Shown here piece after piece: positions 1,245 to 48,492 of a DNA stretch of 64,000 bases. The DNA is from an uncultured Prevotellaceae bacterium. GTDB lineage: Bacteria; Bacteroidota; Bacteroidia; Bacteroidales; Bacteroidaceae. The stretch spans positions 11,619 through 75,618 of the forward strand of contig CAMVDV010000009.1 of assembly GCA_947166305.1 (NCBI GenBank). Reading direction: 5' to 3'. The stretch's first letter is position 1. Every line of letters begins with the position of its first letter. The notes under the pieces were generated by a model. It saw only the letters and a list, made by a program, of their open reading frames with translations. It searched no databases and was not told the origin of the DNA. The position numbers and the translations under genes are program-made.

Positions 1245-1273
1245 TGTAGGGACGCTCCGTGGCGCGTCCGCCC
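1245..1273. repeat. REP-like GC hairpin
   Basis: Reads tgtagGGACGCTCCgtGGCGCGTCCgccc, with flank gcccaatcat shared with the 48493 copy. Confidence 0.8.
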
Positions 1274-1643: not shown

Positions 1644-1716
<73 letters not shown>

Positions 1717-2858: not shown

Positions 2859-2976
2859 GACCCCCCATCCCCCTTTAGGGGGAGGAAGGACCCTCTCTAA
2901 CTCCCCCCTTAAAGGGAGAGGACTCTGCGGCGGGAACTCCCCCTAAAAGGGGGGCGGGGGTCTGTAGTCGGGGGTC
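2859..2976. repeat. GC-rich multi-hairpin element, intergenic copy (about 1.3 units)
   Basis: Bounded by GACCCC...GGGGTC. Inner hairpins are CCCCCTTTAGGGGG, CTCCCCCCTTAAAGGGAGAG and CTCCCCCTAAAAGGGGGG. Confidence 0.9.
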
Positions 2977-3010: not shown

Positions 3011-4642
3011 ATGAGATTAAAGGCGACGGCCATCGTGCTGGCTTTCCTGACGACAGCAGGAGCATCAGCAGACATTGACAAAGCATTAGAAACCTTCGAC
3101 GAGCAGCCCGATGTGGCCACAGCCACTGGCTTCTTCGACGAACTCCTGAAGGAAGAATTCATCGACGAACAAGTTCGTTTCCCCATAGGCACACCCCCCG
3201 ACTCGCTGCAGCAGCAAGTGTGGTACTGGGCAGCCGAATGGTTCTACGACAAACAGCAGTATGAGAAGGCCGAAGCCTACGCCCTGAAAGCCCTGCCGAA
3301 GTACCATCCGTCCAATCCCGAGAAGGCCGACTGCCTCAACACCCTTGGCTGCATCTACGTCCGCCTCAGCGATTTCAAGCAGGCGGCAAGCTATGCCAGG
3401 CAAAGCGTGGAGATAGAAATGCAAGGAGGCAACCACGACCGCATATCCTCGAGCCTCAACACCCTGGCCGGCATTTACATGGCAGGATATCAGGCTAAAG
3501 AGGCAGAAGACATCATCCTCCAAGCCCTCGCACATGCAGAGCAAGCCGACAATCCGGGCCGTAAGGCTATCATCCTGGGCATGGCCTCAGAGATTTATCA
3601 CACGCTGGGTAACGACGAGAAGGCACTCTCCTACGCTGAGCAGGCCATCGAGCTGGAGAAACAACTGAACCGCCCCCAAAAGCTCCTGATACGCCTTTCG
3701 CAGAAAGGGTCGGCACTGCTCGGCCTTCATCGCTACGAGGAGGCAGAAGCCATCTACCGCCAGATAGCTCCACAGCTCAAGCAGATGGGCGACTATCATT
3801 CCTACGCTATCGCCCTCAACCACCTCGGCATGTCCCTTCTCTGCCAAGAACGGCAGCAGCAGGCCATACCTTATTACAGGGAAGCCGCCGACCTCTTCTC
3901 GCGCATGGGCGACCTCTACAACGAAATCCATTCGCACCGAGGACTCTACGAAAGCTACTGGGAACTGAATCCCGACTCGGCGAAGATAGAACTCGACCGC
4001 TTCGACTTGCTCAAGGACTCCCTCTACACGCACTCCACCGCCGAGGCTCTGTCGCGCTACAACGCCGAATTTAGCAACGACGTGTTGCAGCAGGAGAACA
4101 AGGAAGTGAGGCAAGCGCATCGCCGCACCATCATCCTCGGCACAGTCCTCTTGCTGCTGATAGCAGTCGGTGCGTGGCTTGCCATTCTCTACAGCCGTCG
4201 TCGCTGGCAGAGGCAGATGCAGGAACTGATAAAGGAAGTGGAAAAGACCCTCTCTAACTCTTCCTTAAAGAGAGAGGACTCAGCGAAGGAACTCCCCCTA
4301 AAGGGGGTCGGGGGGTCTGAAGAGTCTTTCCTCATGCGCGTCATCGAAGCCGTCAACGAAGCGATGCCTCAGGGCAACTTCGGCGTAGAGCAGATTGCTG
4401 CCGAGCTTGGCATGAGCGTGCAGACATTCCGTCGCCGTCTCTTTGACGCCGCAGGCGAGTCCCCGAAGTCCTTCATCCAAGCCATTCAGATGGAGCGAGC
4501 CGTAAAACTCCTTTCCGAAAAGCCCGACCTTTCCATCTCGCAGGTGGCAAATCTCTGCGGTTTCGACGAGGCAAGTTCCTTCGGACACACCTTCCGACGC
4601 ATCTACGGCTGTTCGCCTTCCGAATACAAAAAAACGCGATGA
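3011..4642 (+). CDS. Membrane-anchored TPR-repeat sensor with C-terminal AraC-type HTH
   Basis: Signal-like N-terminus, TPR-like repeats, TM helix TIILGTVLLLLIAVGAWLAILY, then an AraC HTH (SVQTFRRRLF..., ISQVANLCGFDEASSFGHTFRRIYGCSPSEY). Confidence 0.85.
   Translation: MRLKATAIVLAFLTTAGASADIDKALETFDEQPDVATATGFFDELLKEEFIDEQVRFPIGTPPDSLQQQVWYWAAEWFYDKQQYEKAEAYALKALPKYHPSNPEKADCLNTLGCIYVRLSDFKQAASYARQSVEIEMQGGNHDRISSSLNTLAGIYMAGYQAKEAEDIILQALAHAEQADNPGRKAIILGMASEIYHTLGNDEKALSYAEQAIELEKQLNRPQKLLIRLSQKGSALLGLHRYEEAEAIYRQIAPQLKQMGDYHSYAIALNHLGMSLLCQERQQQAIPYYREAADLFSRMGDLYNEIHSHRGLYESYWELNPDSAKIELDRFDLLKDSLYTHSTAEALSRYNAEFSNDVLQQENKEVRQAHRRTIILGTVLLLLIAVGAWLAILYSRRRWQRQMQELIKEVEKTLSNSSLKREDSAKELPLKGVGGSEESFLMRVIEAVNEAMPQGNFGVEQIAAELGMSVQTFRRRLFDAAGESPKSFIQAIQMERAVKLLSEKPDLSISQVANLCGFDEASSFGHTFRRIYGCSPSEYKKTR
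4246..4317. repeat. Multi-hairpin element copy inside the TPR/AraC CDS (72 bp, in frame)
   Basis: Reads gaccctctctaactcttccttaaagagagaggactcagcgaaggaactccccctaaagggggtcggggggtc and encodes TLSNSSLKREDSAKELPLKGVGGS. Confidence 0.85.
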
Positions 4643-5038: not shown

Positions 5039-8000
5039 ATGAAGACAAACCTAACATTTGCGAGAATCACAATGGCCCTGGCCATTGCATTGTTCCCGTT
5101 CTTGAAGGCCAATGCCTGGGATTGGGAGTGGACCGACACGTGGGGCGAAGCCGTTGCCTGGTGCGAAGAATGCGGAAACGAGTACATTATCTACGCCGAC
5201 AACTCTGCCGAGGCCGAGTCCGCTGCCGAAGACCTCTTCTGCAGCGACTGCGGCTGCTGCTCGGAAGATGTCAACATGGACTGCTATCGCGAGCACCATT
5301 GCCAGTTCTGCGATGGATGCATCGACAATGGAGAGTACCACGTAGGCATCTACAATCTGTTTGACGAGTACATACACTACGATTGTGCCATCGAACTCAT
5401 CGAATCCGGCGACGTCGATGCCTGCAGCTATTGCCACGAACTCTTCGGCGAAGGCGCCGTAGAGTGTGACTGCGGTGTGGGCGACAAGCACTGTACGGAC
5501 TGCTCCGAATCGAAGTGCGAGAAGTGCGGCAAGTGCTTGCTCATAGCCGGTGACGAGACCGATGCCGCATCGGGCGACGCCTGCATCGACCATGGCATTT
5601 GTGGCGAGTGCATGCCCGATGCCTCTGCCGATGACCAGACGCACTGTCGTATATGCTTCAACTGCGACGAGGACATCTGCGATGAGTGCGGCATGTGCGA
5701 GAGCTGTGCCGTATACGAGGAGCACTGCCCCGAATGCGGCTACTGCTTTGGCGACGAGGTGCAATGGTGCGCCGACGATGGGGAGCACTGCGTCAACTGT
5801 TGTAAAGACAACGGATGGTTATGCCCGGCTTGCGAAAGATGCGTGGACGGCGCAGGCATCTACATTTGCGACGACTGCGGCATGTGCGAAGAGTGCTGCC
5901 TGAGCGAGTCTGAGGGAGAAGGCTGCATACATGGCATTTGCACCGCCTCCTCAGAGTTCTACGACCACCTCTGCCCCGAGTGCGGCGAGTGTCCTCAGGA
6001 CGAGGAATGCGACTACTGCGGTCTCTGCATCAACTGTCAGACTGGCTATCACTGCGAGCACGAGCTCTGTCCAGACGGCTCTGAATGGGACGACCACGTC
6101 TGCCCCGACTGCGGTGAGTGCTTCGACGACGGCGAACTATGCGAGTTCTGCGGCCTCTGCGAAAACTGCCGCGAGCACTGCGAGCACGACTTCTGTCCTG
6201 AGAACGACGATGACAGCGACCACTTCATCTGCAACCAGTGCGGCGACTGCTTCGAGGCCATAGATCGTTGCGACGAGTGTGAGCTCTGTCTCGTCTGCTG
6301 TGACGACAACACTCAGTCCATGGGCTGCGACCACGGCTTCTGCGTCGTGAGCGACGACTTCGAAGAGCATTGGTGCTATGAGGACGATCAGTGCCTTGAA
6401 CTCTGCGAGCACGATCCGGAATGCACCCATTCGAATGTCACCTTGGACTACGCCATCAACGGCAATGCCCACTGGCGTGTCTGCGAAGACTGCGGACTCA
6501 CCGTCGACAAGGCACAGCACACAGGCGGCGAGCCTGTCACGTTGACGTCACCCAACGCTGCCACGCACACCAATGGCACAGCTCAGGTGAACTGCATCGT
6601 CTGCAACTACAAGATGGGCATCGTCCCCATCCCCTACGTTGAAGCACCCGCCGACGGCAGTCCGTACATTATTATACAGCCTACCGACTACACAGGCAAG
6701 ACCAACACCGCAGCATGGAAGGAGGAAGAAGATGACCGCTACGCCACCTTCAAGGTGAAGGCAGGCGGCGAAGGACTCTCCTATCAGTGGTATTGTCGCT
6801 ACGGCACCGGCAGCGGCACTAAACTCAGCGACGACAGCTACACACTAGGCACGCAGACGCCGACGCTCAAGACGCTGGTTTATGGCGAAGACTGCGAAAG
6901 GCAGAACCGCAACATCTATTGTATAGTAAGCAACAGCAAGGGCAGCGTCACCTCCGACGCCGCCTACTTCAAGGCAGAACATGTCTTCGGGCGCTACACC
7001 AAGAAGGACAATGAAACGCACGAGAACCACTGCTTCGGCGAAGGATGCAGCGTCGTGAAAGCCACCTCCAAGCACCGCTTCACGGAGTGGACGCTTGTAC
7101 GTCCTGCCACATCCTCCGAGACAGGATTGCGCGAGCAGCAGTGCATGGACTGCGCTTACAAGAAGAGCGAGAGCATCCCGATGGTTGAGCCCGACCACGT
7201 CCACAGCTACGACATAGCGAAGTACAATATGTCGCAGCACTGGTTCGTCTGCGCCTGCGGCATTGCCGGCCCCGATGCTGCCGTCGACCATGTATTCGAT
7301 GAGAGCGAGGTGGTTACCCCGGCAACCGAGACAAAGAGGGGCGAGAACAGGATTATCTGCAGCGCCTGCGGCTTCTTCAAGACAGAGAAGACCGACAAGC
7401 TGCCGCACGTACATGACTGGTACACGTTCGGAGAAATAAGTATTGTCTTGCCAAACGGTCATTCGGGTCCCGACCCGAAGAAGGGCAGCTACGGACCGAA
7501 CTCGCACACCATCAAGTGCAAGGGCTGCAATGAGAAGAAGACCGACCGACACGTTTGGGGTATGTTTGAATGCATGAGGGATGCCAAGGTTCAAGGCAAC
7601 GACACCATCGCCGGAAGGATTGTGCGCTACTGTGATATATGTTCCTACAAGGAAGAAAAGTTCTATCCCCTTGGCTCATGGCCCATCATGATTGCAGGCG
7701 GCACAGCTTACAAGGGACTCACTAACAGAGCTGGTCAGGTGATAAAATGGATTCCTGCCGCTTATGCCAAGAAGGGCGACAAGATAGAAGTTGCTTACGA
7801 TGCGCTTGCTGCCAGGTCGCTCGGGGACAATCAGCCTCAGAAGTTCGTAGAGTGGGTGGACGGCGCAAGCTGGATCGGCGAGACGAACATTCCTTGGGAC
7901 AATGGTCGGAGTAGCATCGACCTGCCTCGCCTTACCTTCCGCCTGAGCCGTACTACTCGCCGATATGGCTTCACGATGCCCGACGGCCCGGCCACCATCT

Positions 8001-9631
8001 TTGCCGTCACCGAGGCATGCGACCACAGCGGCAGCACGAAGCAAACCGCTCGCGTGGAGCCTACTTGCAGCAGCCACGGCTACGAGCCCAGCACGCTCTG
8101 CGCTGACTGCGACGAGGTTCTTGAGGAAGGCGCACGCATTCCTGCACTTGGGCACGACCTGCCCAGCACGCCTATCGCAGGAACCGAAGTCGTGGAGTAC
8201 TGCACGACATGGGTTCAGGATTATAATCAGTATGGAAAGCCGAACACCGCTACGCACGGCTACACGGGCGACTTCCTCTGCAACCGTTGCGGCCAGACGG
8301 TTAAGGGCGAGCCGACGCCCCTCCGCCATGGGAAACACGACAAGAACAATCAATACATAAGGCCTGGATATATTTGGACTAGCTATCAGAAATGGGTGGA
8401 GGCGACGAATCCCCCCACCTGCACCAAGGCTGGATACGAGGATGATCTCTATTGCATCTACTGCAACAAGCTTGTTCAGAAGGGCGAGCGCGTAGAAGCC
8501 CACGGGCATGACTGGGAGTCATGGTACGTAGTGCGCGAGGCCACGACGAAGGTGAAGGGCATGGAGCAGCGCGTCTGCGCCTACGACTATTCGCACGTCG
8601 AGACACGCATCACTGACTACAGCGGTCCGGACTACACGCTGAAGCCCGAAAGGCAGAAGCTCCGCTTCGAATGGACCTACGGAGAGCCTGTTCCGTCGCA
8701 GACCATCACGTTCAAGTCCACTGGCCGCGACAGCATCGGTTCCATTGAGTATGCCGAAGAGCCCAACGGTTACCTCGACGTGACCGTGGACGGCATGACC
8801 ATCACCGCCAAGCCTAATATCGACAATGTAAAATGGGAACGTAGCGACATGGAATACGACGTAGTAGTGACAGACCTTCTCACACCGGCAAACGAGACCA
8901 TCGAAAGCTTCACTGTTCCCGAGATTAAAGCCACCTGCATCATCAAGAAGACGCCCGAGAAGTACTTGCTGACCGTGGAAGACGGCTTGGCCACGACCTT
9001 CACCATGAGCAGACCCGAGTGGACTTACAGCACGGACAGGAGCAACATGCTGAAGGTGCGCGGCGGTGAGTTCGTAGAGCTGGAGCCTGAGGACGAATGG
9101 AAGCATGACTTCCTGCGTTGGGAGGTGATAAAAGGCTCCGACGACATACAGGAGGATGTGCATGAATCCAGGACGAAGAATACACGCTTCGTCATGTCGC
9201 CTGCCGACGTCACCATCCGCGCCATCTACAGGAAGAACGCTCCGACCATGAAGTTCAAGCAGACGGAAGTGACGGCAAGCGTGGAAGAGCCCTTCAAGGA
9301 GCCTGCACTCATCACGATACCGGGCAAGCTGCCTGTCACCTACAGCAGCTCCGACGAGAGGGTTGTACGGGTGAATCCCAAGACTGGCACCGTATCCTTC
9401 ATGGGAGCCGGCACCGCCGTCATCACGGCGACCTCTGCCGAGACCAACCACTATGCTTCCTCGGCAACGTCCTACACGCTCATCGTGCCGCAGGACTTCA
9501 TCACAGGAATAAAGACCCTCTCCGGCTCTCCCTTAAAGGGAGAGGGCATGTTCAACACTGGCGGCCAGCGCGTCGGCGACAGTTACCGTGGCATCGTCGT
9601 GACGAAGAACAAGAAGGAACTGAAGAAGTGA
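5039..9631 (+). CDS. Secreted 1530-aa cysteine-rich repeat protein with a C-terminal Big_2-like Ig domain and a short T9SS-like tail
   Basis: Signal peptide MKTNLTFARITMALAIALFPFLKANA. About 80 Cys fall in residues 42-462 as CxxC modules, with further His/CxxC modules after that. A Big_2-like segment (VTYSSSDERVVRVNPKTGTVSFMGAGTAVITATS) precedes the tail MFNTGGQRVGDSYRGIVVTKNKKELKK. Confidence 0.85.
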   Translation: MKTNLTFARITMALAIALFPFLKANAWDWEWTDTWGEAVAWCEECGNEYIIYADNSAEAESAAEDLFCSDCGCCSEDVNMDCYREHHCQFCDGCIDNGEYHVGIYNLFDEYIHYDCAIELIESGDVDACSYCHELFGEGAVECDCGVGDKHCTDCSESKCEKCGKCLLIAGDETDAASGDACIDHGICGECMPDASADDQTHCRICFNCDEDICDECGMCESCAVYEEHCPECGYCFGDEVQWCADDGEHCVNCCKDNGWLCPACERCVDGAGIYICDDCGMCEECCLSESEGEGCIHGICTASSEFYDHLCPECGECPQDEECDYCGLCINCQTGYHCEHELCPDGSEWDDHVCPDCGECFDDGELCEFCGLCENCREHCEHDFCPENDDDSDHFICNQCGDCFEAIDRCDECELCLVCCDDNTQSMGCDHGFCVVSDDFEEHWCYEDDQCLELCEHDPECTHSNVTLDYAINGNAHWRVCEDCGLTVDKAQHTGGEPVTLTSPNAATHTNGTAQVNCIVCNYKMGIVPIPYVEAPADGSPYIIIQPTDYTGKTNTAAWKEEEDDRYATFKVKAGGEGLSYQWYCRYGTGSGTKLSDDSYTLGTQTPTLKTLVYGEDCERQNRNIYCIVSNSKGSVTSDAAYFKAEHVFGRYTKKDNETHENHCFGEGCSVVKATSKHRFTEWTLVRPATSSETGLREQQCMDCAYKKSESIPMVEPDHVHSYDIAKYNMSQHWFVCACGIAGPDAAVDHVFDESEVVTPATETKRGENRIICSACGFFKTEKTDKLPHVHDWYTFGEISIVLPNGHSGPDPKKGSYGPNSHTIKCKGCNEKKTDRHVWGMFECMRDAKVQGNDTIAGRIVRYCDICSYKEEKFYPLGSWPIMIAGGTAYKGLTNRAGQVIKWIPAAYAKKGDKIEVAYDALAARSLGDNQPQKFVEWVDGASWIGETNIPWDNGRSSIDLPRLTFRLSRTTRRYGFTMPDGPATIFAVTEACDHSGSTKQTARVEPTCSSHGYEPSTLCADCDEVLEEGARIPALGHDLPSTPIAGTEVVEYCTTWVQDYNQYGKPNTATHGYTGDFLCNRCGQTVKGEPTPLRHGKHDKNNQYIRPGYIWTSYQKWVEATNPPTCTKAGYEDDLYCIYCNKLVQKGERVEAHGHDWESWYVVREATTKVKGMEQRVCAYDYSHVETRITDYSGPDYTLKPERQKLRFEWTYGEPVPSQTITFKSTGRDSIGSIEYAEEPNGYLDVTVDGMTITAKPNIDNVKWERSDMEYDVVVTDLLTPANETIESFTVPEIKATCIIKKTPEKYLLTVEDGLATTFTMSRPEWTYSTDRSNMLKVRGGEFVELEPEDEWKHDFLRWEVIKGSDDIQEDVHESRTKNTRFVMSPADVTIRAIYRKNAPTMKFKQTEVTASVEEPFKEPALITIPGKLPVTYSSSDERVVRVNPKTGTVSFMGAGTAVITATSAETNHYASSATSYTLIVPQDFITGIKTLSGSPLKGEGMFNTGGQRVGDSYRGIVVTKNKKELKK
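9514..9546. repeat. Partial multi-hairpin element (first hairpin) inside the giant CDS tail
   Basis: Reads gaccctctccggctctcccttaaagggagaggg and encodes TLSGSPLKGEG in the same phase as the other coding copies. Confidence 0.75.
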
Positions 9632-9726
9632 CGCCAAGGAAAGTCCCATTCTCCATCACCCAAAGTGGTGGGGGAGGGGACTTCCGCACGAAGACCCCCT
9701 GACCTCCTTTAGGGGGAATTCAGAAC

Positions 9727-9805
9727 ACCGCACGCGGGGATTGGCATCGCCGCACGCGGAAATGACAAACGCCGCACGCGAGAATCGCAATCTCCGCGTG
9801 CGGCG
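9727..9805. repeat. 22-bp-period tandem array, CGCCGCACGCG family (~3.6 units)
   Basis: Reads accgcacgcggggattggcat/cgccgcacgcggaaatgacaaa/cgccgcacgcgagaatcgcaat/ctccgcgtgcggcg. The last unit is inverted. Confidence 0.9.
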
Positions 9806-9814
9806 TTTCTTTTT
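9770..9814 (+). terminator. Intrinsic terminator of the giant gene, formed by the last two array units
   Basis: CGCCGCACGCG-loop-CGCGTGCGGCG followed by TTTCTTTTT. Confidence 0.65.
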
Positions 9815-9857
9815 CACCTTTTCACTTTTTCACCTTTTAGAGAGGGTCTTTACCTCT

Positions 9858-12377
9858 CTACAGTCTTCCCGAGCGTGAGATGAGGGAGTGTAGGCGGTCG
9901 GTCAGTGTGTCGGCCGAGAGCAGGCGCGAGATGGGCAGGTGCATCCTGTAGCGCCAGTAGTTCTTGGGATTGGCTGGTACGTTGATACGCTCCTCTTCCG
10001 GATGCGGATTTCGCAGGTCTTTATCCACCGAAAGCCAGTCCTGCAGACTGATGAGGCAAAGCATTGAGGGACTGCCGAGGTGCTGTGCCACGACTTCCTC
10101 GCAAAGCTCTGGGGTGAGGTCGGCCGGGGCTTCGCCGTCGTGCCCAAGCACATTGTTGTAGAAAAGCTGTGAGCGACGGACGTTCTCTCTCCACCAGAGG
10201 CGCAGCGTCGGCATGTCGTGGGTGAAGATGGTGTCGACGCTCTGATAGGGATTCTCCTGCAACGAGGCGAATGGGACGCCGTAGGCTTTCGGCATAGCCT
10301 GTATCTCGAGGCTCAGGATGCCGAGCTTCTGCATGACGGGGCCGACGCAGGCCGGCACCATTCCCAAGTCCTCGCCGCACACCAGCATGTTCGTTGCGTC
10401 GATGAGGGCGGGCAGTTTCTTCATGGCCTCAGCAGCCCAGAAGTCGTTGTGGCGGCGGAAGAAGTAGTCTTCGTAGAGGCGGATGAAGGCATTCTGCTCG
10501 TAGCTTCCGAGAGCATTCCATGCGTCCCGGCCAATCACGCCGATGCGGGGGTGGAAGAGTCCTGGCTGACAGTGCGGCACGAACAGTTCGTCGCGGAAGG
10601 TCACGCCGTAGGAAGCGATTTCTTCCTTCGTGAGAGGCAAGGCAGGAGAGAACTGTCCGAGCAGTGCATCGGGGTTCCCCTTGGGAATCTGCCAAATGCG
10701 GAAGAAGCCCAGGATGTGGTCGATGCGATAAGCACCGAAGTACTGTGCCATGCCTTGCAGCCGTTTCCTCCACCACTGATAGCCGTCGGCTGCCATGCGT
10801 TCCCAGTTGTAAGTGGGGAAACCCCAGTTCTGTCCGGACGGGGAGAAATCGTCGGGGGGAGCACCAGCCGTCATGTTCATGTTGAAGAGATGCGGCTCGT
10901 GCCATGCCTCCACGCTCTGTTGGCTGATACCGATGGGCAAGTCGCCTTTCAGGAAAATGCGTAGGCGGCGGGCATGGTCGGCGGCTTCGGCAAGCTGGCT
11001 GTGCAGCAGATGTTGCACGAAAGCATAGTAGCCGACTTCATGTCTGTGCCTTTCGACGTAGGCATCCACCTCGTCGCTGTTATAGGCAGACAGTTCGGGC
11101 CACTCGCTGAAGCGTGCCGTGCCATAAGTGTCGCGCAGGTGGCAGAAGACTTGATAGGGTTTGAGCCAAGACCAAGACCCCCCAACTACAGACCCCCCAT
11201 CCCCCTTTAGGGGGAGTTCCGCCGCTGAGTCCTCTCCCTTTAAGGGAGAGTTAGAGAGGGTCTCCTCCTCATAGAGCAGATGCAGGTACTCCTCCTTCAT
11301 TTTGATGACCTCCACATAGTCGAGGGCAGGCAATGCGTTCAGCTTCTGCCAGCGCTTCTTGAACTTTTCGAGCATCTTGGCATCGCGAAGAGGCAGTCTG
11401 CGCAGGTCGATGTAGATGGGATGCAGGGCATGGACGCTGATGGCATTATAGGGATAGCTGTCGGTCGGCGTGCGATTCTGCGTGGTGTCATTGATGGGAA
11501 GGAGCTGCACGGCGTGCATTCCGGCACGGGCTGCCCAGTCGCACATCTCTTTCAGGTCGCCGAAATCGCCTACGCCTTGGCTGCCTTCCGACTTCAAAGA
11601 GAACAGAGGAACGACCAGTCCCGCTGCCTTCCAAGGCGATGACGACAGACGGACCTCGCCATCCATCATGCAGACGACGTGGTTCTGCTCTGGCACGACG
11701 GACGGACATTGTCGATTGTCGCCTTCTTCCCACCTTGCCGAATGCTTCTCTCCTGTCACAACATATTTATATTGGAAAGGCAGACGCAGGCCGTCGGCAC
11801 TGATGGAGAGCAGCCATTCCTGCTGACTCGACGGCGTCATGGGCAAGGCGCGACGCACATCCCAGGCTCCGAGCGAAGGCTGGTCGCCGACGAGGGCAAC
11901 CCTTTCGCCTGCAGAAAGATGGGGAGCCTGCACGCGGAAAAGGAACGTGCGGGGGAAAAGGGCCACTCCTGCCGCCTGTCTCACCTCCATTCCCGACGCA
12001 ATCTGATAGGCTGCCGTGTAGCGATAAGAGTCGTCGGGCCTGTCGCGCCAGTGGTCGTAGAGGAAATAGGTGCGGGCATCGTCGGCAGGGAAGAGCCTCG
12101 GCACGGCATCCCATTCGCGTCGAAGCACACGCATCTGTTCCGTTTCGCCCCACGCCGACTGGCCCTTCGATGGACTCGACGGCACGATATTGTAGGAATA
12201 TCTGAACTGTTCGCCGCGAGCACGGAGGATGCTGATGCCTTTCCACATGAGTCCATCCGACGTTTCCAAGGGGATGCGATGCCGGTAGGCCTTGCCATCC
12301 GCAGAAAGGAAGCAAAGTTCCACCTCAAGGCTCTCTCCCCAATTCGTTCTGTATTCAATCGAAAAATGTAAAGTCAT
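9858..12377 (-). CDS. malQ: 4-alpha-glucanotransferase (GH77 amylomaltase) with N-terminal CBM20-like starch-binding modules
   Basis: GH77-like body (GDLPIGIS, DDFSPSGQNWGFPTYNW, YRIDHILGFFRIW, CGEDLGMVP). The N-terminus looks like CBM20. I chose the start at MTLHFSIEY because a -7 box lies 28 nt upstream; the ORF-track TTG at 12407 is unlikely. Confidence 0.9.
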   Translation of the reverse strand: MTLHFSIEYRTNWGESLEVELCFLSADGKAYRHRIPLETSDGLMWKGISILRARGEQFRYSYNIVPSSPSKGQSAWGETEQMRVLRREWDAVPRLFPADDARTYFLYDHWRDRPDDSYRYTAAYQIASGMEVRQAAGVALFPRTFLFRVQAPHLSAGERVALVGDQPSLGAWDVRRALPMTPSSQQEWLLSISADGLRLPFQYKYVVTGEKHSARWEEGDNRQCPSVVPEQNHVVCMMDGEVRLSSSPWKAAGLVVPLFSLKSEGSQGVGDFGDLKEMCDWAARAGMHAVQLLPINDTTQNRTPTDSYPYNAISVHALHPIYIDLRRLPLRDAKMLEKFKKRWQKLNALPALDYVEVIKMKEEYLHLLYEEETLSNSPLKGEDSAAELPLKGDGGSVVGGSWSWLKPYQVFCHLRDTYGTARFSEWPELSAYNSDEVDAYVERHRHEVGYYAFVQHLLHSQLAEAADHARRLRIFLKGDLPIGISQQSVEAWHEPHLFNMNMTAGAPPDDFSPSGQNWGFPTYNWERMAADGYQWWRKRLQGMAQYFGAYRIDHILGFFRIWQIPKGNPDALLGQFSPALPLTKEEIASYGVTFRDELFVPHCQPGLFHPRIGVIGRDAWNALGSYEQNAFIRLYEDYFFRRHNDFWAAEAMKKLPALIDATNMLVCGEDLGMVPACVGPVMQKLGILSLEIQAMPKAYGVPFASLQENPYQSVDTIFTHDMPTLRLWWRENVRRSQLFYNNVLGHDGEAPADLTPELCEEVVAQHLGSPSMLCLISLQDWLSVDKDLRNPHPEEERINVPANPKNYWRYRMHLPISRLLSADTLTDRLHSLISRSGRL
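11176..11262. repeat. Multi-hairpin element copy inside malQ (87 bp, in frame)
   Basis: It is the reverse complement of the 2889-2976 copy, so it has the same orientation relative to its host gene. It encodes TLSNSPLKGEDSAAELPLKGDGGSVVGGS. Confidence 0.9.
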
Positions 12378-12412: not shown

Positions 12413-12714
12413 GGGATAATTAAAGAAAATGGCAAGAACTGAGGAAGAAAAATGCTAAAATGCTTGCATAATCCGTCAAGAATGCCTAAATTTGCATTAT
12501 CAAATAAGTCCGAGATGGTCTTGGAGCGTCAAGACATTGACATCATAAGGGCGTGCTGGTCAGATCGGGATACTCATCAATTTACACTTCATTACCGAGA
12601 AATGTTTCGTATGCTAATGGCGTGCCATCCCATTCGTGGTTAGGTGGATTACAAAGGCAGCGAACCCTCAAAACCTGTTTTTCGGAGTTTCATCACATCG
12701 CCAGTGCGCCCCTT

Positions 12715-13821
12715 TTATTTTCCCTTCAACACGTGTTCCACTTCTTCGTCGCTGTCGGTCAGGCAGAGGATGAGGTTTTTGTATGTACCGTCGTCGACGA
12801 GCCTCATGAGCAAGGGCCAGATGGGTATTTTCTCTGTCCAGAAGTGTGTGTCGAGGAATATCATTGGCGATGCATAGCCGAAGGTGAGGTAGTGGTTCTG
12901 CACTGCCTCCTGGAAGATTTCCTGCAGGGTTCCGGCGCTGCCGGGTGTGTAGATGATGCCACCCTTGGCGATGGTGAGGATGCCGTCCTCGCGGATGCTG
13001 TTGTCGAAGTACTTTGCGATGTGTGTGGCGAAAGGCGTGGATGGTTCATGTCCATAGAGCCAAGTGGGGACGCCGAGGCTTGTGTAGCCCAGATTGGGGT
13101 ACTTGTTGTGTACTTGCCAAGCGGTGGAGAGCCAGAGAGGGTGAGTGTAGAGCGGTGCAACGCGCAGCATGTCGAGCGCTTCCTGCAGTTCGTCCGAGCT
13201 TCTTCCGGCCATCCATGCGCCCAGATGTGTTGCCTCCATTGCCCCCGGGCCTCCGCCGGTGATCATGAGGAAGCCTGCCTCGGTGAGTCGTTTGCTGAGC
13301 TTTGCCACCATTTCATACGAGATGTCGCAGCGCGAGATGCTGTGGCCGCCCATCACTCCGACGAGCCTGTGTTCGTCGAAGTCCTCAAGGAAGTCGTTCA
13401 GACAGTCTGTGATGGAGTGGTCATGCAAAGCCCTTGCCAGTGTTTCCTTCACGTCGGTGGCGTGCTTTCCCTTCTTCAGGTAGTGTCGATAGACGCGTCC
13501 GTCGAAGCATTGTTCGTAGCTTTCCGGCTGGTCGGGACGGTAGCCTTCGTAGAGTTCTTCGGGCGAATAGAGGTGATTGGGAAAGTCGAATGTCTCGCCC
13601 ATGTTGGGGAGGAAGAGGCAATCCCTTGACCGTCGTTTGAGTCCCATCGGCAGTCGGCAGCTCAGGAAGAGGCATTCGCGATAGGTATGGGAGAGTGCCT
13701 GCTCGGGAAACTCCGTGAAGTCTGTGCTCTGGAAGGCAACGTGGCGGAGTTCCTCCTCGGGCTGTGCGAGCTGGCAGGACAGTTCCTGCTGGTTTCTTAT
13801 CTGTAGGTATTTGTCTTTCAT
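12715..13821 (-). CDS. LOG-family / PpnN-like nucleotide 5'-monophosphate nucleosidase family protein
   Basis: Motifs GGGPGAMEATHLGAW and TPGSAGTLQEIFQ (LOG PGGxGTxxE-like). Its start overlaps the smpB stop as TGATG. Confidence 0.75.
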   Translation of the reverse strand: MKDKYLQIRNQQELSCQLAQPEEELRHVAFQSTDFTEFPEQALSHTYRECLFLSCRLPMGLKRRSRDCLFLPNMGETFDFPNHLYSPEELYEGYRPDQPESYEQCFDGRVYRHYLKKGKHATDVKETLARALHDHSITDCLNDFLEDFDEHRLVGVMGGHSISRCDISYEMVAKLSKRLTEAGFLMITGGGPGAMEATHLGAWMAGRSSDELQEALDMLRVAPLYTHPLWLSTAWQVHNKYPNLGYTSLGVPTWLYGHEPSTPFATHIAKYFDNSIREDGILTIAKGGIIYTPGSAGTLQEIFQEAVQNHYLTFGYASPMIFLDTHFWTEKIPIWPLLMRLVDDGTYKNLILCLTDSDEEVEHVLKGK

Positions 13822-14946: not shown

Positions 14947-15067
14947 CGAATAAGAGATGGAAAAGCAAAGGAAAATCCTGTTTATTTTACTTTCCGCTGC
15001 CCTCGCAGAGGGCTTTCTGCTGTCTTTCGGCGGTGGATTCTTCGCCACGCCCCGTGCGACGTTCTTT

Positions 15068-15155
15068 GCATGGTCATGATGCTGCAATTGCAGGTTCATG
15101 ATGTTGCAATTGCACGGTCATGACCATGCAATCATAACCCTGCAGGGTTCTGTGA
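15068..15155. repeat. Tandem array, 4 x 22 bp (GCANGGTCATGANNNTGCAATT x3 plus ATAACCCTGCAGGGTTCTGTGA)
   Basis: Contiguous 22-bp units, 88 bp in total. Same family as 57081-57168. Confidence 0.9.
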
Positions 15156-15282
15156 ACCTTCGTCTGCCCTGCCGTCGCTCATCCTGCTTTGTCCCGTCTG
15201 ACAGGAAAGGCGGTTTCTCCATTTCAGGTGCGCGATGGGAGCGAAAACGGCAGGGAGAAAGTTAAGATGTGTTAAAGTTTAG

Positions 15283-15762: not shown

Positions 15763-15790
15763 TGTAGGGACGCGCCGTGGCGCGTCCGCC
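15763..15790. repeat. REP-like GC hairpin (perfect stem GGACGCGCC/GGCGCGTCC)
   Basis: Reads tgtagGGACGCGCCgtGGCGCGTCCgcc. Confidence 0.85.
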
Positions 15791-24682: not shown

Positions 24683-24840
24683 GTTATATAATTAACGTAG
24701 GCGCGCGTCCTTTTATTGTATATATAGGGCTCTTTTTTTGTCTTTGGCATCAAAAGCGTCCGGCAGAGAGGAGAAAGGACACTTCGCGCGGGAACTCCAA
24801 GTTGCGAATAATCAAGGCACTATAGGGTCGTCTGTGAATC

Positions 24841-24980
24841 TCGTGTGGAGTTTGCGAACTTCTCGTGTGGAGTTTGCGAACTTCTCGTGTGGAGTTTGCG
24901 AACTTCTCACGTTTAGTTTGCGAACTAACCACGTTTAGTTTGTTAATTAACCACGTTTAGTTTACGAACTAACCACGTTG
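24841..24980. repeat. Tandem array, ~6.3 x 22 bp (TCGTGTGGAGTTTGCGAACTTC x3, then CACGTTTAGTTTGCGAACTAAC x3)
   Basis: Contiguous units in the divergent sprA/ruvA intergenic region. Same family as 43794-43873. Confidence 0.9.
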
Positions 24981-25005
24981 TCCGCCCCCAGAACCACCTC
25001 TCCTT

Positions 25006-33162: not shown

Positions 33163-33190
33163 AGAAAAGGTGAAAAAGTGAAAAGGAGAA
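33163..33190. repeat. Simple tract (GTGAAAAG type)
   Basis: Reads agaaaaggtgaaaaagtgaaaaggagaa. Confidence 0.8.
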
Positions 33191-33250
33191 CAATCAGAAA
33201 AGAGGGAGAAAGGATGGCGCGACGAAATGGCTCGTGTCCGTGGCGTAAGA

Positions 33251-33331
33251 TTTCCGCGTGCGGCGTTGGCAATCCCCGCGTGCGGCGTTGGCAATCCCCG
33301 CGTGCTGCGATGGCAATCCCCGCGTGCTGCG
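33251..33331. repeat. 22-bp-period tandem array, CGCCGCACGCG family (reverse orientation, ~3.7 units)
   Basis: Reads tttccgcgtgcggcgttggcaa/tccccgcgtgcggcgttggcaa/tccccgcgtgctgcgatggcaa/tccccgcgtgctgcg. Confidence 0.9.
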
Positions 33332-33354
33332 TTTTAATTCTTTTTCAGTCCCAT

Positions 33355-33412
33355 TTTTACTTTTCTTTTTCACTTTTTAACCATTTCACTTTTTCACTTT
33401 TTCACTTTTTTT
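33355..33412. repeat. Simple tract (CTTTTTCA type), inverted relative to 33163-33190
   Basis: Reads ttttacttttctttttcactttttaaccatttcactttttcactttttcactttttttt. Confidence 0.85.
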
Positions 33413-33414
33413 TG

Positions 33415-33422
33415 TATCTTTG
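33415..33422 (+). promoter_or_regulatory. -7 box TATCTTTG only 8 nt before the ATG of the ABC binding protein
   Basis: Matches TAnnTTTG. The spacing implies a leaderless or near-leaderless mRNA. Confidence 0.4.
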
Positions 33423-33429
33423 CACCGCC

Positions 33430-34590
33430 ATGCAAGTAAAAACACATATTCTGTGCCTCTTTTCGCTTCTGCTGACGGCCTGCGGCGGCGGCAGAACCGA
33501 AGTCCCCGCCGCGACGGGCGACACGCTCGCCATGCGTCATGCCAAGAACCTCATCATCGTGCAGTACGCCGATCATGCGGAAGTGACGCTCCGTAATCCA
33601 TGGGACACGACGGGCGTGTTGGCAAAATACTGCCTTAGCCCCCTCCCGACCTCCCCCTTGGGGGAGGAGACCCGACGCGGAAGCCTCTCCTCCTCGGGGG
33701 AGAGGTTTGGAGAGGGGGCTGGAGAAGGACAGCTTGTCAGCGTCCCTCTGCAGAATGTGGCCGTCTTTGGCAGCGTACACGGTGCCCTGCTCTATGAACT
33801 GGGAGTGGGCGATGCCGTGGGCGGCGTGTGCGACCTCGAATACTTCAACCTGCCGTTCTACAAGAAAGGCGTGGCCGAAGGGCGCATAGCCAACCTCGGC
33901 AACAGCATCCAGCCAAGCCTCGAGAACATCATCAACCTTGGTCCGGATGCCCTGATGCCAAGCCCTTTCGAGAACAGCGGCGGCCTGGGGCGCGTGGAGC
34001 GACTGGGCATCCCCATCATCTGGTGTGCCGACTATATGGAACACACGCCCCTCGGTCGCGCCGAATGGATGCGGTTCTACGGACGGCTCTTTGGCCGTGG
34101 ACAGGAAGCCGACAGCATCTTCAGCCTCGTGGAGCAGCGCTACGAAGCACTCTGCACTCTGGCTAAAGAGGCAAAGACAAGGCCTCGGCTGCTGCCCGAG
34201 ATGCCTTGGAGCGGACAATGGACGCTCCCCGGAGCCGGAAGCAGTTCGACAAAGTTATATACGGACGCCGGAGCCGACTATCTCTTCGCCCATCTCGCCG
34301 GAGCCGGTGGCATTCCGCTCAGCACGGAGAAGGTTGTGGACAAGGGCATCAGTGCCGACATCTGGCTTATCAAGCATCATGGGCCGCTCATCCGCAGCCA
34401 GATGACGGCGGACACCCCGCTGTTGGAGGGCATCAAGGCGCCCATCTGGTGGTGCGACACCTCGCGTTCGCTCCTCTACGAAGAGACTCCCTTCCATCCC
34501 GAAAGGCTCTTGGAGAACCTCATCGCCATCCTTCATCCCGAACTCGGCATCGAGCCGGAGTACAAATACTTTGAAGAATTAAAAAGGTGA
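33430..34590 (+). CDS. ABC transporter substrate-binding lipoprotein (BtuF/FecB-like, iron-siderophore/cobalamin type)
   Basis: Lipoprotein signal MQVKTHILCLFSLLLTAC at an internal Met of the 33004 ORF; the upstream part of that ORF is repeat DNA. It is followed by a FecCD permease. Confidence 0.8.
   Translation: MQVKTHILCLFSLLLTACGGGRTEVPAATGDTLAMRHAKNLIIVQYADHAEVTLRNPWDTTGVLAKYCLSPLPTSPLGEETRRGSLSSSGERFGEGAGEGQLVSVPLQNVAVFGSVHGALLYELGVGDAVGGVCDLEYFNLPFYKKGVAEGRIANLGNSIQPSLENIINLGPDALMPSPFENSGGLGRVERLGIPIIWCADYMEHTPLGRAEWMRFYGRLFGRGQEADSIFSLVEQRYEALCTLAKEAKTRPRLLPEMPWSGQWTLPGAGSSSTKLYTDAGADYLFAHLAGAGGIPLSTEKVVDKGISADIWLIKHHGPLIRSQMTADTPLLEGIKAPIWWCDTSRSLLYEETPFHPERLLENLIAILHPELGIEPEYKYFEELKR
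33637..33720. repeat. Nested-palindrome element variant inside the binding-protein CDS (84 bp, in frame)
   Basis: Outer repeat AGCCCCCTC...GAGGGGGCT with inner hairpins CCTCCCCCttgGGGGAGG and CCTCTCCtcctcggGGAGAGG. Encodes SPLPTSPLGEETRRGSLSSSGERFGEGA. Confidence 0.85.
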
Positions 34591-34611
34591 AAAGTTGAAA
34601 AAGTGAAAAGG
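34581..34611. repeat. Simple tract (GTGAAAAG type) forming the whole spacer between the binding-protein and permease genes
   Basis: Reads aaaaaggTGAaaagttgaaaaaGTGaaaag and contains the TGA stop (34588-34590) and the GTG start (34603-34605). Confidence 0.9.
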
Positions 34612-35613
34612 TCGCTCATCTTACTCATCATCGCATTGTTGCTGCTTGCCATCGCCAACGTGTTGTGGGGATCGCTCTCCATTCCTGTAGGAGACGTGTG
34701 GCAAATCCTTTGCGGAAGCGAAGTGGAAGGGCATCCGGCATGGAGCGTTATTGTCCGCCAAGGGCGCGTCCCGCAGATGCTGACCGCTCTGCTCACCGGC
34801 TCAGCCCTTGGCACTTGCGGCCTATTGCTGCAGACTGCCTTCCGCAACCCCTTGGCCGGTCCGTCGATTCTCGGCATCGATTCGGGCGCAAACCTCGGCG
34901 TTGCCATCGTATTGCTGATGCTCGGCGGCACAGTCTCGATAGGAAGCATGACGCTCGGCGGGCACTTACTCGTGGTGGTGGCTGCGATGGCGGGAGCACT
35001 CGGCATCATGGCCTTGCTAATGGTGCTGAGCAGACTGCTCCGCAGCCAAGTGATGCTGCTCATCACGGGCGTCATCATCAGCTACGTCACAGGCAGTATC
35101 ATCCAATTGCTCAACTATTCTGCCACGGAACAAGGTGTCCACAACTTCGTCATCTGGGGCATGGGCAACTTCGCCTCCGTCGGCATCGAGCGTCTGCCCG
35201 TGTTCTGTTCGCTCTCCGTCGCCGGCCTGCTGCTGGCTTTGCTGCTCGTCAAGCCGCTCGACGCCCTGCTCTTGGGCGACCGCTACGCTGAGAATCTGGG
35301 CATCAGGATAGGCTATGTCCGGCAGATGCTCCTGCTCGTCACTGGTCTGCTCACTGCCACTACGACCGCCTTCTGCGGCCCCATTTCGTTCATCGGCCTT
35401 GCCGTACCGCATCTGGCCCGCCTTGCACTCGGCACATCGAGCCACAGAACCTTGATGCCCGCCACGATGCTCATCGGGGCAAACCTCGCCCTGATGTGCA
35501 ACCTGCTCAGCGCTTTGCCACGCGACGGCAGTCTCATCCCCATCAGCGTCATCACCCCTCTCATCGGAGCGCCCGTCGTTCTGCACGTCATACTGAAGCA
35601 AAGAACCAGTTAA
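34603..35613 (+). CDS. FecCD/BtuC-family ABC transporter permease
   Basis: Multi-TM protein with typical FecCD motifs (AFRNPLAGPSILGI, ISFIGLAVPHLARL). Confidence 0.9.
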   Translation: MKRSLILLIIALLLLAIANVLWGSLSIPVGDVWQILCGSEVEGHPAWSVIVRQGRVPQMLTALLTGSALGTCGLLLQTAFRNPLAGPSILGIDSGANLGVAIVLLMLGGTVSIGSMTLGGHLLVVVAAMAGALGIMALLMVLSRLLRSQVMLLITGVIISYVTGSIIQLLNYSATEQGVHNFVIWGMGNFASVGIERLPVFCSLSVAGLLLALLLVKPLDALLLGDRYAENLGIRIGYVRQMLLLVTGLLTATTTAFCGPISFIGLAVPHLARLALGTSSHRTLMPATMLIGANLALMCNLLSALPRDGSLIPISVITPLIGAPVVLHVILKQRTS

Positions 35614-35691: not shown

Positions 35692-37284
35692 ATGAAGAAG
35701 CAAATCCTTTCCCTCCTTGTTGCAGCAATGAGCATGACCGCTGCTGCAGAAGTGAACTACCAAGTCGTTCCCCTGCCTCAGAAGATTGAAATCGAGCCGG
35801 GCGGCAAGTTCTTCACCCTCGTCCAGGGCTTGACCGTGGGCTATCCCGCCGATAATGCCTTGATGAAGCGCAACGCAGAGTTTGCAGAAGAGTACTTCGG
35901 CTTCCTCCCAAAAACAGCCGACAAGAAAGGTGCCGACGTGAGTCTTACACTCGGATTGAAGTCGGATAATCCCGATGCCTATGTCATAACAGTCGGGAAG
36001 AAAGGCATCAACATCCAAGGCGCAAGCGAAAGCGGCGTATTCTACGGCCTTCAGACGCTCCGCAAAAGTATCATGAACGAACAAGGCGAGGTTCGACTGC
36101 CCTTCGCAACCGTCAGTGCGGAGCCTCGATTCGCTTATCGCGGCACGGAACTCGACTGCGCCCGACACTTCTTCCCTGTCAGTTTCGTCAAGAAGTTCAT
36201 CGACATCCTTGCCCTCCACGGCATCAATCGCTTCCATTGGCACTTGACGGACGACCAAGGCTGGCGCTTCGAGGTGAAAGCCCTTCCCGAACTGGCTGAG
36301 AAGGCAAGCGTTCGTCCCCACACCATCATCGGCAGGAATGTTGGTCTCGCCGACCCTTCCAATGCCATCTTCGATGATACTCCCGAAACAGGATACTACA
36401 CGCAGCAGGAACTCCGCGACGTAGTGCGCTATGCTGCCGAACGCTTCATCACCATTGTCCCCGAGATTGACCTGCCAGGCCACATGGTGGCGGCGCTAAG
36501 CGTCTATCCCGAGCTCGGCTGCACAGGCGGTCCGTATGAAGTTTGGTGCACATGGGGCATTGCCGACGACGTGCTCTGTGCAGGCAACCCCAAGACGTTG
36601 GAGTTTCTCAAGACCGTCTATGGAGAACTTTGCGACGTCTTTCCCGGCGAACTGATTCACATCGGAGGCGACGAAAGCCCGCGTGTTCGGTGGAAGTCTT
36701 GCCCCAAGTGTCAGGCAAAGATGAAGGAGCTTGGGCTCGAGAAAGAGGCTCAGCTGCAGACCTATATAAATAAGGAGATGGAATCCTTCCTCCAGAAACG
36801 CGGACGACAGATTATTGGATGGGACGAGACGCTGGAGGGCGGACTGAGCGAGAAGGCTGCCGTGATGAGTTGGCGTGGCTATGAAGGCGGCAAGGCTGCG
36901 GCCAAGCTGCATCATCATGTGGTCATGACGCCCACCTCACATTGCTATATCGACTATTATCAGCTCAAGAATACCAATGCCCAGCCCCTTGCCATCGGTG
37001 GATACCTGCCCTTGAGCAAAGTTTACAGCATGGAGCCAGTCCCAGCAGACTTGACCGACGAGGAAGCCCAGTACATCATGGGGGCGCAATGCAATCTCTG
37101 GACGGAATATGTCGTCAGCCCTGACCACGCCGAGTACATGCTCCTGCCGCGTCTGGCAGCCATGAGTGAGGTGCAGTGGCTGCAGCCCGAGGCAAAGAAC
37201 TACGAGCAGTTCCTCGGCAGACTGGAAGGCTTGAAGGGATGCTACAAGAAGCTTGGCTACAAGTATTGCACGGGAAACGAATAA
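35692..37284 (+). CDS. Beta-N-acetylhexosaminidase (GH20)
   Basis: Signal peptide; RGTELDCARHFF, HWHLTDDQGWR, HIGGDE. Confidence 0.9.
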   Translation: MKKQILSLLVAAMSMTAAAEVNYQVVPLPQKIEIEPGGKFFTLVQGLTVGYPADNALMKRNAEFAEEYFGFLPKTADKKGADVSLTLGLKSDNPDAYVITVGKKGINIQGASESGVFYGLQTLRKSIMNEQGEVRLPFATVSAEPRFAYRGTELDCARHFFPVSFVKKFIDILALHGINRFHWHLTDDQGWRFEVKALPELAEKASVRPHTIIGRNVGLADPSNAIFDDTPETGYYTQQELRDVVRYAAERFITIVPEIDLPGHMVAALSVYPELGCTGGPYEVWCTWGIADDVLCAGNPKTLEFLKTVYGELCDVFPGELIHIGGDESPRVRWKSCPKCQAKMKELGLEKEAQLQTYINKEMESFLQKRGRQIIGWDETLEGGLSEKAAVMSWRGYEGGKAAAKLHHHVVMTPTSHCYIDYYQLKNTNAQPLAIGGYLPLSKVYSMEPVPADLTDEEAQYIMGAQCNLWTEYVVSPDHAEYMLLPRLAAMSEVQWLQPEAKNYEQFLGRLEGLKGCYKKLGYKYCTGNE

Positions 37285-37340
37285 AAAGGTGAAAAGGTTA
37301 AAAAGTGAAAAGGTGAAAAAGTGAAGAGTGAAGAATTTGC
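37284..37340. repeat. Simple tract (GTGAAAAG / GTGAAGA type) spanning the GH20 stop and the ATPase GTG start
   Basis: Reads aaaaaggtgaaaaggttaaaaagtgaaaaggtgaaaaagtgaagagtgaagaatttgc. Confidence 0.9.
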
Positions 37341-38147: not shown

Positions 38148-38250
38148 TCCGCTCGCGACGCCTCTGATTTTCGCCTGCGACGTTTGCCATCGCCGCACGC
38201 GAAGATTCCCATCGTCGCACGCGAAAATCGGCATCGCCGCACGCGACGTT
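38148..38250. repeat. 22-bp-period tandem array, CGCCGCACGCG family
   Basis: Reads ...cgcctgcgacgtttgccat/cgccgcacgcgaagattcccat/cgtcgcacgcgaaaatcggcat/cgccgcacgcgacgttttc. Confidence 0.85.
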
Positions 38251-38352
38251 TTCAGCCGCCGTCAGCGATGCTCTCCGATGCCGATGGCAACGGCCTTTCC
38301 GAAGGAAGCGAGAAAAGCGCCCGACGCAGCCGCCGAGCCAGCTTCCTGGCCA

Positions 38353-43752: not shown

Positions 43753-43793
43753 AAACAGTCGGCCGAGCCATCGTCCCGAGTCCTTCGGGCGAA

Positions 43794-43873
43794 CGCGACA
43801 CGTTTAATTCGACAACTAAACACGTTTAGTTCGCCAACTAAACACGTTTAGATTGCCAACTAAACGTGTCGCG
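43794..43873. repeat. 22-bp-period array (CTAAACACGTTTAGTTCGCCAA family) with inverted outer ends CGCGACACGTTTA / TAAACGTGTCGCG
   Basis: About 3.6 units. Same family as the second half of 24841-24980. Confidence 0.9.
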
Positions 43874-43943
43874 TTTGGCTATGCTTTTGGTTATGACTTT
43901 CCCTTTTTCATGAAAAGCGTCCGCATCAAATCGATTTGGGGAG

Positions 43944-48491: not shown

Positions 48492-48492
48492 G

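Follow-up and report, generated by a model that had tools for sequence, protein, structure and literature searches.

The stretch of DNA analysed here (the window, 64,000 nt in length) is derived from a metagenome (ENA ERZ14209542), and the closest named homologs of its proteins come from MAGs labelled 'Bacteroidaceae bacterium' and 'Prevotellaceae bacterium'. One nucleotide past the stop codon of ORF 1853-2857, which Pfam assigns to YceG (MltG family), begins an intergenic composite, which spans positions 2859-2976 on the plus strand and is followed by the sequence TTTTATT. An earlier note on this DNA had described a 118-bp block past the mltG stop, bounded by GACCCC...GGGGTC and built from short hairpins, and all of these features are indeed present. 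Specifically, the sequence and profile HMMs resolve this block, hereafter copy A, into an inverted right-type unit (2859-2888), a left unit (2889-2922) and a right unit (2936-2963), together with a 13-nt terminal duplicate ending in GGGGGTC. The RNA fold of copy A has a free energy of -66 kcal/mol (z=-1.8).

Related sequences occur elsewhere in the window. A profile HMM trained on three copies and run on the window (window HMM) matched positions 11179-11262 (minus strand, E=1e-28), 2889-2976 (plus, E=4e-26), 4246-4322 (plus, E=2e-25), 2859-2920 (minus, E=5e-7), 9692-9722 (minus, E=3e-5) and 9514-9547 (plus, E=8e-5). The same units of the window were recovered by a generic unit HMM trained only on other genomes. 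In addition, a repeat search of the window paired 4240-4322 with 11186-11268 as 83-nt segments that are 89% complementary, and 11 pyrimidine-first GC-rich hairpins were counted in the window, compared to about 2 in shuffled sequences.

Copy B (4244-4322, plus strand, E=2e-25) consists of a left and a right unit and lies in frame in ORF 3011-4642, whose product carries TPR repeats, a TM helix and an AraC-type HTH (Pfam domains). It encodes TLSNSSLKREDSAKELPLKGVGGS in the variable linker past the TM helix; the hairpin of its left unit has decayed by two substitutions, and its fold gives z=-0.3. Copy C (9513-9547, plus strand; E=1e-5 with the generic unit HMM) is a single left unit, in frame near the C-terminus of ORF 5039-9631, where it encodes TLSGSPLKGEG. 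Downstream of the same ORF, copy D (9692-9722; E=8e-4 with the generic unit HMM) is a single intergenic unit reading TTCCCCCTAAAGGAGGTCAGGGGGTCT on the minus strand. Copy E (11176-11263, minus strand, E=1e-28) is composed of a left unit, a right unit and a terminal duplicate, and lies in frame in ORF 9858-12377(-), which codes for a GH77/CBM20 4-alpha-glucanotransferase; the peptide derived from the element, TLSNSPLKGEDSAAELPLKGDGGSVVGGS, corresponds to residues 373-401. Copies B and E both join a left unit to a right unit of the type CTCCCCCTAAAGGGGGNNGGGGGGTC, and both are read in the family frame TLSNSPLKGE, as TLSNSSLKREDSAKELPLKGVGGS in copy B and as TLSNSPLKGEDSAAELPLKGDGGS in copy E.

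Copy F (33637-33720, plus strand) lies in frame in ORF 33430-34590, coding for a PF01497 substrate-binding protein, and encodes SPLPTSPLGEETRRGSLSSSGERFGEGA in a hypervariable loop. Its ends read AGCCCCC...GGGGGCT, it follows the same plan of a double hairpin with inverted ends, and its fold gives z=-4.1. The HMM matches of this copy are weak (E=0.003 with the window model and about 1 with the generic unit model). Used as a query, it gave about 100 matches (counting both strands and the window's own copies) to double-hairpin elements in other loci, the closest of which belong to its own subfamily. On the basis of its architecture, its fold and these matches, we count copy F as confirmed, as a member of a sister subfamily.

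The earlier note had placed further copies near 4246-4317, 9514-9546, 9693-9721 and 11176-11262, all of which coincide with significant HMM matches, and a variant of the same architecture at 33637-33720, which agrees with what we found for copy F. The remaining two of its eight sites, taken as possible decayed traces (37345-37392 and about 48150-48215), did not hold up: they score no better than chance with both models (E>2 with the window HMM, no match at E<50 with the generic unit HMM), and their resemblance by eye to decayed right-hand units does not count as evidence. The other six are confirmed, and they bear out the claim of a family found both between genes (copies A and D) and in frame inside ORFs (copies B, C, E and F). 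No Rfam family matched the elements when the window was searched.

The basic unit of the family is about 31 nt long and comprises an (A)GACCC head, a linker of 7-9 nt (e.g. TCTCTAA) and a 7-bp hairpin (e.g. CTCTCCC-TTAAA-GGGAGAG). Across the superfamily the head is either (A)GACCC or (A)GCCCC, and the stem has a C-rich and a G-rich arm enclosing an A/T loop. The usual element joins a left unit, a spacer of 0-50 nt and an inverted right unit (e.g. TCTCCCC-TTTAA-GGGGAGA-TTTAGAGGGGTC(T)), with an overall length of about 35-120 nt. Since TTAAA is the reverse complement of TTTAA, the pair of units constitutes a true inverted repeat. When copies from other genomes were compared, the inverted ends AGACCC...GGGTCT proved to be sharp at dozens of unrelated sites; a TGTAG sequence after the right end was seen in a few copies only. 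On folding, the canonical 80-nt element gives a stem of about 35 bp (-44.6 kcal/mol, z=-4.95). Facing units in 1.38 Mb of related loci are most often 50-150 nt apart.

Stem pairing was assessed on units picked by head and loop alone, with no pairing required. Under these conditions 79% of the stem cells were paired, compared to 42-59% after sliding the partners, and three stem positions switch between T-A and C-G. Therefore, we conclude from this alternation and from the degree of pairing that the stems have been kept through compensatory change across the subfamilies.

The family extends well beyond the window, as the earlier note had proposed to examine by scanning related genomes. An exact pattern for the left unit was found in 81 stretches from about 20 species-level genomes, nearly all of them rumen MAGs of Prevotellaceae/Bacteroidaceae, from cattle, sheep, goat, yak, roe deer and reindeer, while the right-unit pattern of the window was found in at least 120 stretches of metagenome contigs. 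Single units were also present in one Alloprevotella MAG and in one Paludibacteraceae MAG. Viral contigs gave no pattern match, hence no sign of phage carriage. A concatenated 52-aa query of element peptides, run against a database of 5.8 billion proteins, gave 22 word candidates and no matches, a result that is uninformative on the number of carriers. An assembly artefact was rejected as the source of the repeats, given that copies with locus-specific variants were found repeatedly in assemblies made independently from different animals.

The sequence itself shows that, on either strand, only one frame of the left unit is free of stops. Consistent use is made of it: 73 of 86 pattern matches lie in a long ORF in the same orientation and in the same frame, G|ACC CTC TCT AAC TCT CCC TTA AAG GGA GAG, which gives TLSNSPLKGE. 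After merging orthologous sites, 56 independent sites remained, of which 49 (about 88%) lie within long ORFs, 41 in the sense and 8 in the antisense orientation (about 5:1). The other seven are at a gene edge or intergenic: at three sites the element provides the last residues and the stop codon at the 3' end of an ORF, two sites are at a 5' edge and two are intergenic. The antisense frame is likewise open, therefore the sense bias is not due to stop codons. Taken as random insertion followed by selection, the distribution would be expected to include more than 7 non-internal sites out of 56 and no sense bias, which disfavours that explanation. The pattern scans and the tabulation of sites reveal a widespread family, of which the earlier note had understated both the share residing in ORFs, in a single frame and with a sense bias, and the nucleotide conservation of some orthologous copies described below.

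The genes hosting the elements are unrelated to one another, and among them are those for housekeeping enzymes such as leucyl-tRNA synthetase (LeuRS), NAD-dependent DNA ligase (LigA), a DEAD-box helicase, adenylosuccinate lyase, threonine synthase, an M24 aminopeptidase, phosphofructokinase (PFK), an RNB-domain RNase (RNase R/II family), GcvT (glycine-cleavage T protein) and MurB. One ORF of 2239 aa contains at least five element-derived peptides. The lengths of the in-gene copies are multiples of three and the host frame stays open; on these grounds RNA splicing and translational bypass were rejected as ways in which the internal copies would be dealt with. In the window, the orientation of the elements tracks that of the host gene within a few kb (copies B and C are on the plus strand in plus-strand genes, copy E on the minus strand in a minus-strand gene), which points to transcription or translation, and not replication, as the relevant axis.

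The right-unit family, as seen in the metagenome scan of at least 120 stretches, is seen more often at gene junctions, and in-frame single units occur as well. In the junction type, two units flank an AT-rich spacer of 40-60 nt, able to hold a stop and a start codon. One element spanning a junction has its arrangement conserved in five species (L012, L037, L044, L048 and L069): the left unit closes the upstream ORF (..GED*), a spacer of about 55 nt includes the start codon of the gene that follows, and the right unit is translated as the N-terminus of the downstream protein. As a separate observation, copy C and units in L064, L077 and L131 are single hairpin units placed in frame in unrelated proteins, within regions resembling T9SS-type C-terminal sorting domains, next to a 'YDLSGR'-like strand; the sorting domain is a putative one, judged from the sequence motif.

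Comparison of orthologous sites shows that the elements are present in some lineages and missing in others, as the earlier note had suggested checking. Most GH77 orthologs, including distant ones, are devoid of the element and read LYEEQ-RRSICQKAEYRAFVSENAE-WLQPY, compared to LYEEE-[element peptide]-WLKPY in the window, and several other lineages have different element-like peptides at this position. In the AlphaFold2 model of the GH77 protein (mean pLDDT 81.5, pTM 0.85), residues 376-400 have pLDDT values below 50 and are placed between predicted helices 354-375 and 405-418. According to this model, the element peptide, missing from most orthologs, is predicted to be a disordered loop. A second low-confidence loop, SPSKGQSAWGETE, is found at residues 70-81 in the CBM20 part of the same protein (window positions 12134-12170(-)), where other orthologs carry clear element-type peptides, e.g. 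SLPIEGEVW. A decayed copy in this loop of the window was considered and rejected, as the DNA there has no recognisable unit.

At the site of copy F, the loop of the PF01497 protein has anywhere between 0 and about 45 residues, depending on the ortholog, and orthologs 91% identical do not have the copy. In L204, a close relative whose flanks are about 97% identical, an unrelated segment of 42-57 nt takes the place of the 84-nt copy F. The linker between TM helix and HTH that hosts copy B is hypervariable in all homologs at or below 60% identity, for which reason no clean empty allele could be defined for it. In other genomes, orthologous sites contain full elements, single-hairpin derivatives, termini-only remnants such as AGAC-GCA-GAAGGGTCT in L037, nested or tandem units, and swapped subfamilies. 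Filled alleles lack 11-57 nt that are found in the other allele; resident sequence is thus replaced and not simply added to, which counts against transposition. No target-site duplication was seen at the copies compared with alleles lacking them, a comparison that covers only a few informative sites. Altogether, the wide spread of the family and the orthologs lacking the element indicate that we are dealing neither with a motif confined to the window nor with conserved coding sequence devoid of empty sites.

A strain 95.6% identical to the window (L083) allowed a comparison at short range. Copy A is present in this strain with differences at 7 of 118 positions, copies C and D are identical, copy B keeps the consensus hairpin, and copy E differs at about 14 of 100 positions, its outer terminal part being changed. 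For copies A, B and E, the divergence between the window and this strain is no lower than that of the background.

A different picture was obtained when orthologous copies were compared between species. In 16 codon-phased pairwise comparisons from five orthologous sets, which were ascertained by an intact left unit in both species, 716 of 722 positions of the element outside the search pattern were identical (99.2%), whereas the flanks in the same comparisons had identities of 0.92, 0.93 and 0.73 at codon positions 1, 2 and 3, respectively. The contrast between 99.2% and the 73% at flanking third positions disfavours tolerated junk as an account of these shared copies. Orthologs also have in common spacer variants that are private to their locus, which favours one ancestral insertion that has not changed since, and disfavours repeated insertion or conversion by copies elsewhere. 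Concerted evolution was considered as the cause of the conservation and found unlikely, since every locus retains its own spacer variant. In the same loci, elements that were not picked by the pattern are mostly 20-50% identical or absent in the other species. In our reading, the copies do not all turn over alike: many are gained and lost, and a subset is kept unchanged.

All together, these data support the view that the window samples a superfamily of small non-autonomous elements, dispersed in a clade of rumen Prevotellaceae and tolerated in frame inside genes, a reading to which we assign a probability of roughly 0.75. Copies would have spread to many unrelated sites in this clade of uncultured bacteria, and over time they would have been gained, lost, nested and replaced. 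Multiplication would proceed by transposition, with the enzyme supplied in trans; this step is suggested by the dispersal of the copies, their defined inverted ends and their presence or absence at orthologous sites. The survivors inside genes would be translated as hydrophilic loops rich in Ser, Pro, Leu, Lys, Gly and Glu (e.g. TLSNSPLKGEDS..SPLRGDLEGS), probably located in insertion-tolerant linkers and surface loops, where the peptides may be merely tolerated.

With regard to the enzyme, the window contains no transposase, in line with the earlier note: no transposase family was matched by any long ORF in the Pfam search. In the 1.38 Mb of related loci, no IS-sized class of inverted unit pairs was found, and a tblastn search of these loci with an IS200 TnpA query, which is a weak test, gave chance-level matches only. 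The window also contains a second repeat family, unrelated in sequence and with all copies between ORFs, represented by the GTAG-headed palindrome GTAGGGACGCGCCGTGGCGCGTCC. Four copies within 3 mismatches are present, at 1246-1269(+), 15764-15787(+), 48494-48517(+) and 52322-52345(-), compared to 0 expected. This family looks like a classical GTAG-type REP, so that a RAYT transposase may exist elsewhere in the genome.

The conservation data bear on a possible, if somewhat improbable, explanation, which is compatible with a mobile origin: the elements, or a subset of them, would be a maintained cis-acting module whose residence in the sense orientation is selected. Such a module could be a structured RNA in mRNAs, recognised by a nuclease such as RNase III or by an RNA-binding protein, or else a protein-bound DNA site. 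The identity of 716/722 compared to 73% at flanking third positions, the locus-private spacer variants kept in orthologs, the 41:8 sense bias despite a frame open on both strands, the orientation of copies B, C (plus) and E (minus) with their host genes, and the stem of about 35 bp of the canonical element (z=-4.95) are all consistent with a function of this kind. However, in these loci the elements not captured by the pattern mostly lack conservation between species (20-50% identity or absent), the elements vary at least like the background between the window and the 95.6% identical strain, the hairpin of copy B has been lost and no Rfam family matches; moreover, the conserved sets are those in which an intact left unit was required in both species.

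A related idea, which we consider unlikely, is that of a conserved signal at the level of the sense-strand nucleic acid, either a structured RNA tag through which one processing or binding factor would act on a set of mRNAs, or a sequence upheld by a correction or drive mechanism. The suggestion comes from the combination of about 99% identity between orthologs at about 27% synonymous divergence, the preservation of private variants and the 5:1 sense bias.

The replacement of resident sequence leads to a further alternative to dispersal by transposition, namely that the repeats are filler, or ectopic gene conversion, introduced during break repair at variable loops with other copies as templates. 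Spread templated by repair would account both for the replacement and for the pile-up of elements at the same sites. Filled alleles do lack the 11-57 nt of the other allele, no target-site duplication was found, one and the same site can hold different subfamilies depending on the lineage (GH77 after LYEEQ; L074 compared to L036; L005/L067 compared to L041), and nested and tandem units are seen (L048 and L106). Nevertheless, the inverted ends AGACCC...GGGTCT are sharp at dozens of unrelated sites, and sharply defined inverted ends are typical of termini recognised by an enzyme. In addition, no flanking homology between donor and target is evident, and the short 'empty' alleles often resemble termini-only remnants, as in L037, so that what appears as replacement may be a later internal deletion. 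We therefore regard filling during repair as decidedly improbable as the main route of spread. Finally, the low complexity of the encoded peptides (S/P/L/K/G/E) and their location in variable linkers might suggest ordinary linkers of independent origin or ancestral coding sequence and no repeat family at all, a notion with hardly any likelihood left, given that stretches of 60-90 nt are near-identical between unrelated genes, third codon positions included, that the same sequence is intergenic in copies A and D, that both orientations occur and that the stems are perfectly complementary.

To our knowledge, there is essentially one textbook example of in-frame palindromic repeats, the Rickettsia palindromic elements (RPEs). 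Their existence is usually put down to relaxed selection in an intracellular parasite. A search of open-access full texts and bioRxiv yielded no account of elements of this kind in Prevotella or in Bacteroidota. RPEs are in-frame palindromic insertions in unrelated genes, which give rise to a family-specific peptide at positions tolerated by the fold (PMC10969869). The rumen family is likewise short and palindromic, resides in frame in unrelated and often housekeeping genes, and is read in a fixed frame as a family-specific peptide; in the three hosts examined (the GH77 loop, the copy F loop and the copy B linker) the positions appear compatible with the fold. In this respect the parallel with RPEs drawn by the earlier note is apt, as in-frame residence in housekeeping genes is common to both (PMC10969869). 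The two differ in that the rumen hosts are free-living Bacteroidota, while those of RPEs are obligate intracellular Alphaproteobacteria, and in that the rumen element is shorter and modular, with two hairpin units of about 31 nt, compared to about 100-150 bp for RPEs. In addition, about 88% of the independent sites of the rumen family are intragenic, compared to 'nearly half' in RPEs, and a preference for the sense orientation and a conserved nucleotide sequence in some orthologous copies distinguish the rumen family. In view of the phylum and the base composition, sequence homology with RPE-1 to RPE-10 of Rickettsia would not be expected.

The second system to be compared is that of REP/BIME/REPIN sequences, in which inverted REP hairpins surround a spacer and orthologous sites are long-lived and vertically inherited (PMC3116915, PMC3337134). 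The rumen unit is similarly a GC-rich imperfect palindrome of 20-40 nt, arranged as two inverted units with a short spacer and present at high copy number, and orthologous sites also persist. However, its head is GACCC/GCCCC instead of the GTAG or CGTC of REPs, its copies are mostly intragenic (49/56 in long ORFs), unlike the extragenic REPs, and no RAYT was found with the rumen family in the sequence examined. Intragenic REPs are known in Proteobacteria, where they lie inside ORFs, provide short peptide insertions and sometimes stop codons (Di Nocera et al. 2013, PMC3733652). The rumen units resemble them by lying within ORFs, with three sites at ORF 3' ends, but there the intragenic copies are a minority of extragenic families, and here they are the large majority (PMC3733652). 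RPEs are the closest parallel in behaviour, and REPIN/BIME sequences the closest in architecture.

MITEs (Correia/NEMIS, ERIC, BOX and RUP) share with the rumen element the small size (<300 bp), the multicopy state, the terminal inverted repeats, the stable fold and the lack of a transposase gene of its own, with dozens to hundreds of copies in related genomes. In contrast, no target-site duplication or parent IS has been identified for the rumen family, which is found mostly in frame in genes, and typical MITEs are intergenic (PMC10969869). The MITE- or REP-like behaviour proposed in the earlier note is hence supported as far as small size, multicopy state, inverted ends and REPIN layout are concerned; the absence of a target-site duplication, of a GTAG/CGTC head and of an extragenic location sets the family apart. 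Mitochondrial GC clusters and double-hairpin elements, as well as coding palindromes, are also GC-rich hairpin mobile repeats that invade coding regions (PMC4478555, PMC6649704), but they are organellar and have no sequence relationship to the rumen family, and the likeness is one of analogy only.

A second large case of in-frame palindromic repeats, in abundant free-living rumen bacteria and with multiple copies in enzymes such as LeuRS, LigA and MurB, means that the phenomenon is not bound to an intracellular lifestyle. The elements inflate and diversify proteins in rumen metagenome catalogues, create spurious variable regions in alignments, and can mislead ortholog clustering. The nucleotide conservation and the sense bias make the acquisition of a host function testable.

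Other repeats and RNAs were observed in the window. Arrays of A/T-rich repeats with an 8-bp period, of the types AAAAGGTT, GAAAAGTG and TTCACTTT, occupy many intergenic regions, the longest being about 250 nt. They map to approximately 1142-1205, 1391-1455, 9798-9843, 33165-33204, 33354-33418, 34565-34620, 37275-37337, 48430-48579, 50765-50812, 54031-54288 and 58929-58994. The length of these arrays varies between strains, as in the 55-nt gain of L083 near 4791, and in some orthologs a repeat of this type is translated in variable loops as 'NSSLFTLHSS'. Tandem arrays with a 22-bp period, belonging to several families, are intergenic and in both orientations, and the units of one of them contain CGCACGCG; the arrays lie at 1297-1400, 1454-1563, 9707-9808, 24832-24994, 33233-33334, 38172-38295 and 43767-43885, and 15047-15159 pairs with 57073-57185. 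Finally, the Rfam search identified the family Bacteroidales-1, a suggested 6S-like RNA, at 12549-12717 (plus strand, 128.6 bits), and a tRNA at 1644-1716 (minus strand).
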